From: Candidatus Hydrogenedentota bacterium
GTDB lineage: Bacteria; Hydrogenedentota; Hydrogenedentia; Hydrogenedentales; SLHB01
Reading direction: 5' to 3'
DNA: 64,000 nucleotides
Assembly: GCA_045863295.1 (NCBI GenBank)
Contig: BTWA01000003.1
Coordinates: forward strand, 32,001-96,000
This document shows positions 33,032 to 34,333 of the stretch, piece after piece (the first letter of the stretch is position 1; each line of letters starts with the position of its first letter). The position numbers and the translations under genes are program-made. Under the pieces are notes generated by a model, which saw nothing but the letters and a program-made list of their open reading frames with translations, was not told the origin of the DNA and did no database searches.

Positions 33032-33067
33032 AAAAAAAGAAAGCGGGAAGCACAGAGCGCTTCCCGC
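33032..33067 (-). terminator. Rho-independent terminator after microprotein 1
   Basis: Minus strand gcgggaagcgc-tct-gtgcttcccgc followed by tttctttttt, about 25 nt after the stop codon. Confidence 0.85.
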
Positions 33068-33091
33068 CACCATTAGCGAACGGATGAACCG

Positions 33092-33190
33092 TTAGAGAAC
33101 CTGATACAGGACGATGAGAGCCACCACCCACCAGATCCACCAGAACGGATTCAGGAACCACCACCAGAACGCTTTACGGGGAGTCGTCAT
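33092..33190 (-). CDS. Trp-rich hydrophobic microprotein 1 (32 aa) MTTPRKAFWWWFLNPFWWIWWVVALIVLYQVL
   Basis: Translated by hand. AAGGAGG SD 8 nt before ATG, own promoter and terminator, 7 Trp. Confidence 0.8.
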   Translation of the reverse strand: MTTPRKAFWWWFLNPFWWIWWVVALIVLYQVL

Positions 33191-33376
33191 TTCGGAAACC
33201 TCCTTCCTATTTTGGATTTTCCCAGCTACTCCTTTACCCCATCTCCCCCTAGGAGACAAGGCACAGGAGATGTTGCCTTGTGAACAGGTGAACTAACGCC
33301 ACCTCATTGAAACCCAGCCCATTGCCCCCAAACCACAGGATCAGGTATTTCAACCCTACCCTGTGTGGCAGGCCAG

Positions 33377-33405
33377 ACTATAGCACAAACCTCACGCGGA
33401 TACAA
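33377..33405 (-). promoter_or_regulatory. Sigma70-type promoter of microprotein 1
   Basis: TTGTAT-N17-TATAGT with extended -10 TG. Confidence 0.6.
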
Positions 33406-33543
33406 GAATTTTTTTGACCTCGCACCCCGCGCGAATCTGTGCTAACCACTACAATACCCTCGGATTACCGCAACGTTTCACGTTTGCCAAAGGTAGCGGA
33501 AACCGGCTTTCGATCGCCCACTTCCGCACGAACCGGTTCACCA

Positions 33544-33642
33544 TCAAACGATGGTGGACGCATTAACCCAGAAATTCCAACCTGCGCTCAAAAATGTGTA
33601 GATGAACACAGGCACCCACCAAAACAGCAGGAACAGCAACAT
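33544..33642 (-). CDS. Trp-rich hydrophobic microprotein 2 (32 aa) MLLFLLFWWVPVFIYTFLSAGWNFWVNASTIV
   Basis: Translated by hand. AAGGAGG SD 8 nt before ATG, WW at 8-9, no charged side chains. Confidence 0.78.
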   Translation of the reverse strand: MLLFLLFWWVPVFIYTFLSAGWNFWVNASTIV

Positions 33643-33795
33643 TGTCAAGTCCTCCTTTTGTCACAAGATGTCTAAGCCAAACCCCCATGAACCTCGGCCG
33701 TTGCTTGCGCAATTCGGAGTGGGAGAAATAATAGTGCAGTTACGCCTAGATTCTCCTTCCGCTTCCGAAAACGGACAAGGCATGTGTTTCGAATG

Positions 33796-33818
33796 CGCCG
33801 CAGCCGTCAGCCGCAGCG
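33796..33818 (-). other. RNA hairpin after microprotein 3 (no U-tract)
   Basis: Minus strand cgctgcggc-tgacg-gctgcggcg pairs fully with two G-U wobbles. Confidence 0.45.
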
Positions 33819-33840
33819 TGCCGTGAGGCCTGAAAACTTC

Positions 33841-33918
33841 TTAGAACGGGTAAAACGAAGCGTAAATCACGTTCCACAGAAGCCACAGCGGCCACCAGAG
33901 AATCAACCAAAACAACAT
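33841..33918 (-). CDS. Trp-rich hydrophobic microprotein 3 (25 aa) MLFWLILWWPLWLLWNVIYASFYPF
   Basis: Translated by hand. AAGGAGG SD 8 nt before ATG, WW at 8-9, 5 Trp. Confidence 0.8.
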   Translation of the reverse strand: MLFWLILWWPLWLLWNVIYASFYPF

Positions 33919-33981
33919 ACCTCGAACCTCCTTTCTTGTGTCATGTTTCTCACTTTCCGCTCTGTGCGGGTTTGTGCGGAG

Positions 33982-34010
33982 AGTATAGCATAGAGGATCA
34001 GAAGATACAA
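33982..34010 (-). promoter_or_regulatory. Sigma70-type promoter of microprotein 3
   Basis: TTGTAT-N17-TATACT with extended -10 TG. Confidence 0.65.
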
Positions 34011-34089
34011 CGGTTTATGCACCCTGACCCACCCACACTCCAAACAAACCCACGCGAAATTGAAACCAAGCCACGCTAGTGTGCGTCAA

Positions 34090-34121
34090 ACAGAAAAGGC
34101 GGACGTTCGCACGCCCGCCTT
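34090..34121 (-). terminator. Rho-independent terminator after microprotein 4
   Basis: Minus strand aaggcgggcgt-GCGA-acgtccgcctt then ttctgtttg. The G-U wobble and GNRA loop work only on the minus strand. Confidence 0.75.
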
Positions 34122-34151
34122 GTGCTTACAACACGGTAACGAACGGCTGGC

Positions 34152-34244
34152 TCACGGCACGATAAGATGAGACACGTCCAAGCCAGCACCGAAAATAAAC
34201 CACCAACCCAGCAGAAACCACCAGAAAATCCACAAAAGAATCAT
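34152..34244 (-). CDS. Trp-rich hydrophobic microprotein 4 (30 aa) MILLWIFWWFLLGWWFIFGAGLDVSHLIVP
   Basis: Translated by hand. AAGGAGG SD 9 nt before ATG, WW at 8-9 and 14-15. Confidence 0.8.
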   Translation of the reverse strand: MILLWIFWWFLLGWWFIFGAGLDVSHLIVP

Positions 34245-34304
34245 ATCGGCGAACCTCCTTTCGCATTCGGTCGTTTACGATGCCCCTAAGCATACGTGTT
34301 TCGC

Positions 34305-34333
34305 ACTCTAACATAGCGGATCTGGATTGTCAA
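34305..34333 (-). promoter_or_regulatory. Sigma70-type promoter of microprotein 4
   Basis: TTGACA-N17-TAGAGT with extended -10 TG. Confidence 0.65.

Follow-up and report, generated by a model that had tools for sequence, protein, structure and literature searches.

Tryptophan-rich, single-helix microproteins encoded in fixed order in a family of Hydrogenedentota

Introduction

Annotation routinely misses small hydrophobic proteins, and multi-member modules of such proteins are rarely known. The question addressed here is what is encoded in a gap of 1615 nt between the end of a paiB-like open reading frame (ORF; position 32793) and the start of a response regulator gene (34409) in a member of the phylum Hydrogenedentota. 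The DNA analyzed, termed the window, comprises 64,000 nt of the metagenome-assembled genome of an uncultured sludge organism, Candidatus Hydrogenedentota bacterium (assembly GCA_045863295.1, contig BTWA01000003.1, positions 32,001 to 96,000 of the forward strand), to which coordinates refer unless another locus is named. An initial annotation, made from the letters alone, had put the gap at about 1.6 kb and had proposed that it holds a tandem array of four tryptophan (Trp)-rich, hydrophobic microprotein genes. We report that these genes belong to an undescribed family of extremely Trp-rich, single-helix microproteins; the general kind, small hydrophobic bacterial proteins, is already known.

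At least four genera of an uncultured phylum keep several such peptides, 13 to 30% of whose residues are Trp, the costliest amino acid, in a fixed order. The locus also allows the appearance of a gene cluster to be traced, in a gap whose length in related genera is only 160 to 314 nt. If the peptides co-operate in the membrane, they would provide a compact model of single-helix assembly and of dense Trp in a bilayer. If they are toxins, type I-like systems would extend to Hydrogenedentota, a phylum from which we know of no such system, although no literature search was aimed at this point.

Four Trp-rich genes in one intergenic gap

Reading of the minus strand at 33000 to 34400 yielded four ATG-initiated ORFs of 30, 25, 32, and 32 codons, and the sequences and positions proposed in the initial annotation were reproduced. 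They encode microprotein #1 (34152..34244, 30 aa, MILLWIFWWFLLGWWFIFGAGLDVSHLIVP), assigned below to the C-like type D; #2 (33841..33918, 25 aa, MLFWLILWWPLWLLWNVIYASFYPF), type B; #3 (33544..33642, 32 aa, MLLFLLFWWVPVFIYTFLSAGWNFWVNASTIV), type C; and #4 (33092..33190, 32 aa, MTTPRKAFWWWFLNPFWWIWWVVALIVLYQVL), the long form of type A. A Shine-Dalgarno (SD) sequence AAGGAGG ends 9, 8, 8, and 8 nt before the ATG of #1 to #4, respectively, in line with the 8 to 9 nt claimed at first. The peptides contain 5, 5, 4, and 7 Trp, respectively, i.e. 21 in 119 residues (17.6%), against a background of 1.5% in ORFs of at least 300 aa on the ten largest contigs of the same genome. The strongly charged side chains comprise only D23 of #1 and, in #4, R5 and K6; net charges are accordingly −1, 0, 0, and +2. 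The Trp and charge counts thus agreed with those of the initial annotation.

To judge chance occurrence, ATG ORFs of 20 to 60 aa were filtered for a leading GGAGG, at least four Trp, and at most three charged residues. This filter retained four ORFs in 33000 to 34400; among 2000 dinucleotide-preserving shuffles of this region, 1998 gave none and two gave one. Applied to the complete genome (6,335,068 bp), it returned exactly four ORFs, which were those of the cluster, and a looser whole-genome scan found no further hydrophobic, Trp-rich, SD-led short ORF. In total, the genome contains 590 AAGGAGG sites, 113 of them with an ATG 5 to 10 nt downstream. The four ORFs are real, protein-coding genes.

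Two side observations concern the same sequence features. Five other ORFs of the AAGGAGG-N5-10-ATG type, 35 to 49 aa long and hydrophobic or amphipathic without Trp enrichment (e.g. MLFVLASIFNFPLLPYDW..., MPFDLTAIVTQIIGILIGLLLP...), lie outside the window at C2:266474(+), C2:269212(−), C4:209918(−), C9:124660(+), and C5:222239(+) of the same genome (G000), where they may represent further unannotated small proteins. Within 33092 to 34244 (minus strand), the Phe/Leu/Ile-Trp-Trp codons recurrently yield (T/C)TCTGGTGG, which we take to resemble the E. coli Chi octamer GCTGGTGG and regard as a by-product of codon choice.

Orthologues, peptide types, and distribution

A nucleotide search of 41 related genomes gave matches only in the coding parts of #2 and #4, and only in one other genus, whose locus contained five SD-led, Trp-rich ORFs that were clear amino-acid homologues. 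Six-frame profile searches were then evaluated for 135 Hydrogenedentota genomes at E ≤ 0.01 for type A and E ≤ 0.05 for type B. The window genome represents genus g1, and genome G057 represents g45; g45 and g9 were absent from the query profiles. Type A was found in 12 of the 135 genomes, all in g1, g6 (6/6), and g12 (5/5), and in none of 81 genomes outside the family. Type B was present in 17 genomes, namely in g1, g6 (6/6), g12 (5/5), g9 (3/3), and g45 (1/1, E 0.011), with one additional weak match containing an internal TGA. Type C was detected in 13 genomes: g1, where both #3 and #1 were recovered, g6 (6/6), g12 (4/5), g45 (1/1), and one weak match.

Four other genera of the family therefore carry members: one has the complete set of four types, D is missing from two, and only B is present in g9. 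The gene order is constant, with B followed by C and then by one to three copies of A, and D stands in front in g1 and g45. Three distinct types thus hold a fixed order across four genera despite changing flanking genes. A GGAG-type SD was present in all copies inspected, and the peptides range from 17 to 42 aa with 13 to 30% Trp. The assignment of #1 as a C-like type D reflects its alignment with type C and a positional counterpart of 40 aa in G057, located between the regulator and type B.

Each type has its own conserved residues. In 11 type B orthologues, the six residues W12, W15, Y19, Y23, P24, and F25 are invariant; in type A, W18, W21, and L28 are invariant and W20 nearly so. The C-terminal motifs also differ by type, being ..Y-x3-YPF in B, ..(A/G)G(W)N.. 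in C and D, and ..LY(Q/E)VL in A. The one to three type A copies per locus are 17 to 32 aa long and end in LYQVL or LLEVV, and short A forms (17 to 22 aa) match the second helix only. A Trp pair at exactly positions 8 and 9 had been singled out as a shared feature; it holds in the window but not in orthologues, as exemplified by MFLLLWGFWLFWW and MFIFWWIWW.

The four peptides had also been described as old, diversified paralogues. Distinct types with their own orthologues bear out the diversity, but shared descent was not established: the hhalign probability was 78% when B was compared with C (16 N-terminal columns), 50% for B and A (seven columns), and 4% for C and A. With a composition as biased as this one, such profile similarities leave common descent of the types unproven.

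The search was extended beyond the phylum with short patterns. A scan across GTDB with a four-row type A alignment matched 112 stretches, six of which were confirmed by tblastn, and four of these were clusters of the Hydrogenedentota type. The loci L036 and L037 were rejected as family members; their matches are transmembrane segments within larger proteins and were taken as chance. In metagenomes, none of 49 stretches for type B and none of 141 for type A was confirmed, and a viral scan likewise confirmed none of 49. As judged from these searches, the peptides appear, for now, to be confined to one Hydrogenedentota family, in which five genera carry them. Locus L038, from a record titled 'uncultured Nitrospiraceae bacterium', starts with a type A gene whose peptide is identical to g6 copies; its taxonomic label may be ill-matched to its content.

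The peptides matched no described family; the initial annotation had not recognized one either. Pfam, NCBIfam, and PADLOC gave no match, PHROGs a single one at E 0.85, and the PDB sequences, searched with three profiles, none, none, and one at E 1.5. With #4 as query, there was no match at E ≤ 0.001 among 1.84 billion protein representatives. The ESM Atlas gave no usable match. Literature searches on small proteins of Hydrogenedentes, Trp-rich bacterial membrane proteins, Trp type I toxins, and multi-peptide leaderless bacteriocins revealed no such peptides, and for the general literature on the phylum none of the matches listed, as far as their available text goes, dealt with small proteins.

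Selection and expression

A dN/dS ratio below 1 had been suggested as a check on the coding nature of the ORFs. By the Nei-Gojobori method, we compared every pair of type B or type A genes that was equal in length, non-identical, and had a proportion of nonsynonymous differences (pN) of at most 0.4, 37 pairs in all. The ratio to the proportion of synonymous differences (pN/pS) was below 1 in 37 of 37 pairs (0.00 to 0.84); these pairs are non-independent and include many paralogue comparisons. Orthologue pairs with near-saturated synonymous sites gave values of 0.03 to 0.21. Examples of synonymous (Sd) versus nonsynonymous (Nd) differences per site number are Sd 13/17.2 versus Nd 5/69.8 (ratio 0.09), Sd 8/9.7 versus Nd 1/41.3 (0.03), and Sd 9/15.3 versus Nd 5/62.7 (0.14). 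Purifying selection acts on types A and B.

Near-identical DNA, sharing at least half of the sampled words, was found in four rows from three studies of sludge and bioreactor metagenomes, one of which may be the source of the window. Words of the stretch also occurred in six RNA rows. Four of these, from four studies, were mapped, and all four contained contigs with zero mismatches inside 33556 to 34097, which jointly span #3, the spacer, #2, and the #2 leader. One contig (33556 to 33850) runs from #3 to just beyond the stop codon of #2, and another (33649 to 33896) from the spacer into #2. At least the #2-#3 unit is transcribed in wastewater communities. The mapped contigs left out #1, #4, the paiB-like gene, and the regulator, an absence that is uninformative, and contig ends beside hairpins are probably assembly breaks.

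Transcription units and the spacer hairpin

Upstream of #1, a promoter-like sequence TTGACA-17-TAGAGT with TG before the −10 element (34305..34333, minus strand, as are all elements described here) agrees with the consensus at 10 of 12 positions, and a hairpin of 11 pairs (7 GC) followed by a T-run, resembling an intrinsic terminator, comes after the gene (34096..34121). The #2-#3 unit is preceded by TTGTAT-17-TATACT with TGC before the −10 element (33982..34010), a candidate promoter recognized by its pattern and by its identical position in the g1, g6, g12, and g9 loci. About 190 nt upstream of #4 lies a third promoter-like site, TTGTAT-17-TATAGT (33377..33405), with TGTGCTATAGT conserved in g1, g6, and g12; after #4, a terminator-like hairpin of 12 pairs (8 GC) with a T-run is located at 33042..33068. 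Neither a promoter nor a terminator was found in the interval between #2 and #3. On these signals the locus is therefore divided into three predicted transcription units, #1, #2-#3, and #4, and the simple tandem array of the initial annotation has to be replaced by this arrangement.

An alignment of the B-C unit across genera showed conservation of the promoter, the SDs, the coding frames, the terminator, and one spacer element, the remainder being variable. One promoter serves B and C, and the terminator follows C. The spacer element (33714..33768, UCGGAAGCGGAAGGAGAA ... UUUCUCCCnnUCCGA) is approximately 55 nt long, nearly invariant in g1, g6, and g12, unique within this genome, and missing where C is absent or divergent (g9 and g45). 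In folds of six of six genomes, its SD-like GGAGAA pairs with UUUCUCC at a probability of 0.85 to 1.00, and in none of the six does UUUCUCC pair with the SD of C. RNAalifold gave 14 pairs, none with compensatory changes; the hairpin is thus predicted from thermodynamics and sequence conservation only. It might serve in processing or in transcript stability, or it might set the B:C ratio.

The leaders were analyzed likewise. B leaders open with a conserved 5' hairpin, the stem of which is retained in g1 and g9 although its sequence has changed. In minimum free energy folds of eight B leaders, the SD was predicted to be unpaired or partly paired, with no shared partner. Apart from its promoters, no conserved structure was seen in the leader preceding the first A gene. 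In g6 and g12, this leader contains a second promoter-like site (TTGAAA/TTGAAT-17/18-TACAAT) approximately 95 nt downstream of the TGTGCTATAGT promoter, seen at L004:4400-4560 (G005), L009, L014, and L015 and degenerate in the window (approximately 33300 to 33345); it could be a tandem promoter or give rise to a short upstream transcript.

An Rfam search at E ≤ 1 gave no match within the gap. Outside it, a sub-threshold match to the small RNA BjrC68 at 31882 to 31954 (plus strand; 22.7 bits versus a gathering score of 39, E 0.011) sits right after a class-V aminotransferase gene and is probably a terminator-like hairpin.

Peptide properties and proposed function

The peptides are very hydrophobic, with grand average of hydropathy (GRAVY) values of 0.85 to 1.64 and summed Wimley-White octanol energies of −20 to −26 kcal/mol. 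AlphaFold2 predicted a kinked single helix for #3 (helices 2 to 8 and 10 to 31; predicted local distance difference test score, pLDDT, 88.7) and, for #4, helices 4 to 12 and 15 to 31 separated by a kink at N14-P15 (pLDDT 82.5). Together with composition and conservation, these models back the original proposal of genuine genes for single-helix, very hydrophobic microproteins. In type B, the spacing of the invariant residues W12, W15, Y19, and Y23 (i, i+3, i+7, i+11) would place them on one helix face. In long A forms, Lys and Arg are confined to the N terminus.

We favor the view that the locus encodes a set of co-operating, membrane-embedded microproteins, to which we assign a probability of roughly one half. 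It is based on the fixed order of distinct types, the co-transcription of B and C, the strong, constitutive-looking signals, and the one-sided aromatic ladders. The genes form a lineage-restricted module of four types in the order D-B-C-A. Each peptide follows a common plan: the N-terminal segment is rich in aromatic residues, a Pro/Gly kink usually comes next, and the aliphatic helix after it leads to a conserved, short C-terminal motif of polar or aromatic character. The peptides would insert into the cytoplasmic membrane. According to the positive-inside rule, a Lys/Arg-bearing N terminus is placed in the cytoplasm, and the N terminus of the long A form would therefore face this compartment. 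The peptides would act jointly, whether by assembling among themselves into a hetero-oligomeric helix bundle or by serving as accessory 'picket' helices in some larger complex whose genes lie elsewhere. B and C would be made from one transcript bearing the spacer hairpin, and D and A from their own sigma-70-like promoters and terminators, with A amplified to one to three copies in relatives.

Small single-helix subunits of membrane complexes, such as PetG/L/M/N of cytochrome b6f, CydX, and KdpF, provide a parallel for such joint action: they, too, comprise several different transmembrane helices of approximately 20 to 40 aa, sensible only together or with a larger partner, and carry interfacial aromatic residues. 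Their genes are mostly part of the operon that encodes the complex or adjoin it, whereas the present genes are stand-alone units with neighbors that change between genera and no known partner complex. Gramicidin A shares with the peptides that it is very short, uncharged, Trp-rich, N-formylated, and hydrophobic and works inside the bilayer. It is, however, a non-ribosomal β-helix of alternating D- and L-residues, and the peptides studied here are ribosomal, all-L, and predicted to be α-helical.

Several points weigh against a co-operating set. Membrane insertion, topology, and peptide-peptide contact are deduced from composition and gene order only, and the fixed order among relatives may simply be inherited. 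B is retainable alone, as in g9. In a glnA tree (26 genomes, single gene, midpoint root), g6, g12, and g9 form a clade (support 96/91), g1 falls into a larger clade (96/87) with the non-carriers g25, g19, and g44, and g45 stands outside. On this tree, with non-carriers g44, g25, and g19 interspersed, a minimum of three gains or losses is required to explain the carriers; the module is therefore dispensable. The highest pN/pS value, 0.84, was that of #2 versus its counterpart in G047 (g12) and is derived from few sites; for type C, which offered no usable pN/pS pair, coding status would follow from amino-acid conservation and the SD. The RNA contigs carry no strand, transcript ends, or levels. 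Finally, type I toxins would also match in size and hydrophobicity, in the tandem copies of A, and in lying within a long gap.

One extension of the favored reading goes further. D-B-C-A could form a self-sufficient, microprotein-only membrane structure, a bundle with one-sided Trp/Tyr ladders that serve as the lining of a pore, hold a lipophilic cofactor, or pass electrons along, and that arose within one family in the gap between two convergent genes; we regard this as speculative and rather unlikely.

Alternative functions

The peptides could instead be type I toxin-like or stress-induced, membrane-depolarizing peptides, whose translation is restrained by an RNA antitoxin or by mRNA folding, with the tandem A copies corresponding to ibs/ldr repeats. 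Features used to recognize type I toxins in Fozo et al. (2010, PMC2887945) are a length below 70 aa, one transmembrane region, a short polar or aromatic C terminus, tandem repetition in one intergenic region, distance from the flanking genes, and omission from annotation. Type A shows all of these features and the other types do so loosely, the members being 17 to 42 aa long with predicted single helices for #3 and #4. The likeness to Ibs/Sib, Ldr/Rdl, and ZorO-type systems (PMC2887945) includes peptides of 17 to 32 aa that are unannotated and very hydrophobic, genes that have promoters and terminators to themselves and stand in a long intergenic gap, and one to three tandem A copies. The long 5' leader of the first A gene (approximately 190 nt) would also suit a toxin, and the B-C mRNA in RNA libraries is compatible with a stable, untranslated toxin mRNA.

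Several observations are less easily reconciled with a toxin. Seven orthologous loci were scanned for antisense promoters of the form TTGnnn-16/18-TAnnnT, a pattern that leaves non-consensus promoters outside; five contained no site, and G047 and G057 one each at non-corresponding places, whereas sense-strand sites were positionally conserved in g1, g6, and g12. The SD of the B leader is predicted to lack consistent pairing, and the UUUCUCC of the spacer would pair with a decoy and not with the SD of C (6/6 folds). Every copy has a strong, well-spaced SD, and a charged C-terminal cluster is absent. Known arrays repeat one toxin-antitoxin unit, whereas three or four different types are arranged here in fixed order, two of them co-transcribed. 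Type A does occur in tandem (one to three copies); B, C, and D are single and unlike A. A Trp content of 13 to 30% and the lack of similarity in the profile libraries set the cluster further apart. The type I toxin logic considered in the initial annotation found no support in these scans and folds, with no conserved antisense promoter in seven loci and no consistently sequestered SD, and we consider a toxin function unlikely, albeit still to be reckoned with.

Leaderless, secreted peptides acting outside the cell, such as a multi-peptide bacteriocin of the aureocin A70/garvicin KS type, a phenol-soluble modulin-like surfactant or cytolysin, or hydrophobic signals, are a more doubtful proposition. 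The layout of three to four adjacent leaderless genes for peptides of approximately 20 to 32 aa, each with its own SD, recalls multi-peptide leaderless bacteriocins and also the psm-alpha operon. The former consist of three to four peptides of 30 to 34 aa, and some leaderless bacteriocins are Trp-rich (PMC6131525). In the same source, aureocin A70 and garvicin KS peptides are given net charges of +4 to +5, a pI above 10, and GRAVY values of 0.4 to 0.7, and their loci adjoin conserved secretion and immunity determinants, cereucins being treated alongside them (PMC6131525). The peptides of the cluster, in contrast, have net charges of −1 to +2 and GRAVY values of 0.85 to 1.64, show no amphipathic pattern, and appear too hydrophobic for solubility. 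A Pfam scan of 43 neighboring ORFs at eight loci identified sulfatases, glnA, P-II, the regulator, the paiB-like gene, an ankyrin-repeat gene, and others, but no ATP-binding cassette (ABC) transporter or immunity-like gene in the examined flanks of g1, g6, g12, g45, and g9. A regulator bearing a helix-turn-helix (HTH) domain adjoins the cluster in two of five genera; its orthologue (57 to 73% identity), however, occurs in 40 of the 54 genomes of the family and lies on another contig in g6, g12, and g9.

Maturation of the peptides as ribosomally synthesized and post-translationally modified peptides (RiPPs) by enzymes encoded elsewhere, e.g. by Trp cross-linking, prenylation, or halogenation, is very improbable. 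In favor are the shortness, Trp content, and clustering of the peptides, and Trp is modified in some classes of RiPPs. However, no modifying enzyme, protease, or exporter adjoins the cluster in the five carrier genera, and the remark in the initial annotation that no maturase gene is visible extends to all of them. There is no division into leader and core, the entire peptide being hydrophobic and conserved; Cys is absent, Ser and Thr are few, and the 17-aa forms are too short for a recognition leader plus a core. The suggestion of antimicrobial peptides or RiPPs accordingly found no support in view of the net charges and of the missing transporter, immunity, and modifying genes.

Least credible are regulatory leader ORFs or RNA-level elements in which Trp codons sense tRNA-Trp charging (as in trpL and tnaC) and the peptide itself is irrelevant: runs of two to four Trp codons, terminator hairpins right after #1 and #4, and the conserved RNA hairpin of the B-C spacer recall such elements, but no downstream gene shares a transcription unit with them, the cluster converging on glnA in g6, g12, and g45; the terminator after #4 lies approximately 250 nt from the next gene, which varies between genera; and non-Trp residues (YPF, LYQVL, AGWN) are conserved while synonymous sites are saturated.

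Genomic setting and origin

Directly upstream of the cluster, the minus strand encodes a response regulator with an HTH_17/MerR-type HTH and a receiver domain (34409..34999), preceded by tRNA-Phe(gaa) and tRNA-Thr(cgt) (35112..35270, minus strand). In G057, the order is tRNA-Phe, tRNA-Thr, the HTH_17-receiver regulator, D, B, C, A, an ankyrin-repeat gene, convergent glnA, and P-II. The regulator is thus the left neighbor there as well and follows the same tRNA pair; the synteny that the initial annotation had proposed to look for recurs in a second genus. The window shares the left flank of G057, whereas g6 and g12 share its right flank and have a sulfatase on their left. A functional link between regulator and cluster was rejected because of the wide occurrence of the regulator and its location on other contigs in g6, g12, and g9.

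In the non-carriers G065 (C9:16079-18232), G063 (C207:362-2519), G067 (C585:1498-3805), and G016 (C436:3440-5684), the regulator gene and glnA are convergent and 160 to 314 nt apart. This gap corresponds to the position of the cluster in G057 and may mark the site of its origin or loss. Across 19 genomes from 17 genera (g9 and 16 non-carrier genera), the 4 kb beyond glnA contained no short ORFs that were SD-led and rich in Trp, nor did the DNA behind glnA of the window genome, which lies on another contig. From these arrangements we read one origin in the regulator-glnA gap, which would have been followed by rearrangements and losses.

A sulfatase-like gene between glnA and the regulator at L090:200-1272 (G003) is split into two ORFs that overlap (280 and 170 aa). 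Its counterpart in G069 is a single ORF of 342 aa, and the split in G003 may reflect a frameshift or an assembly error.

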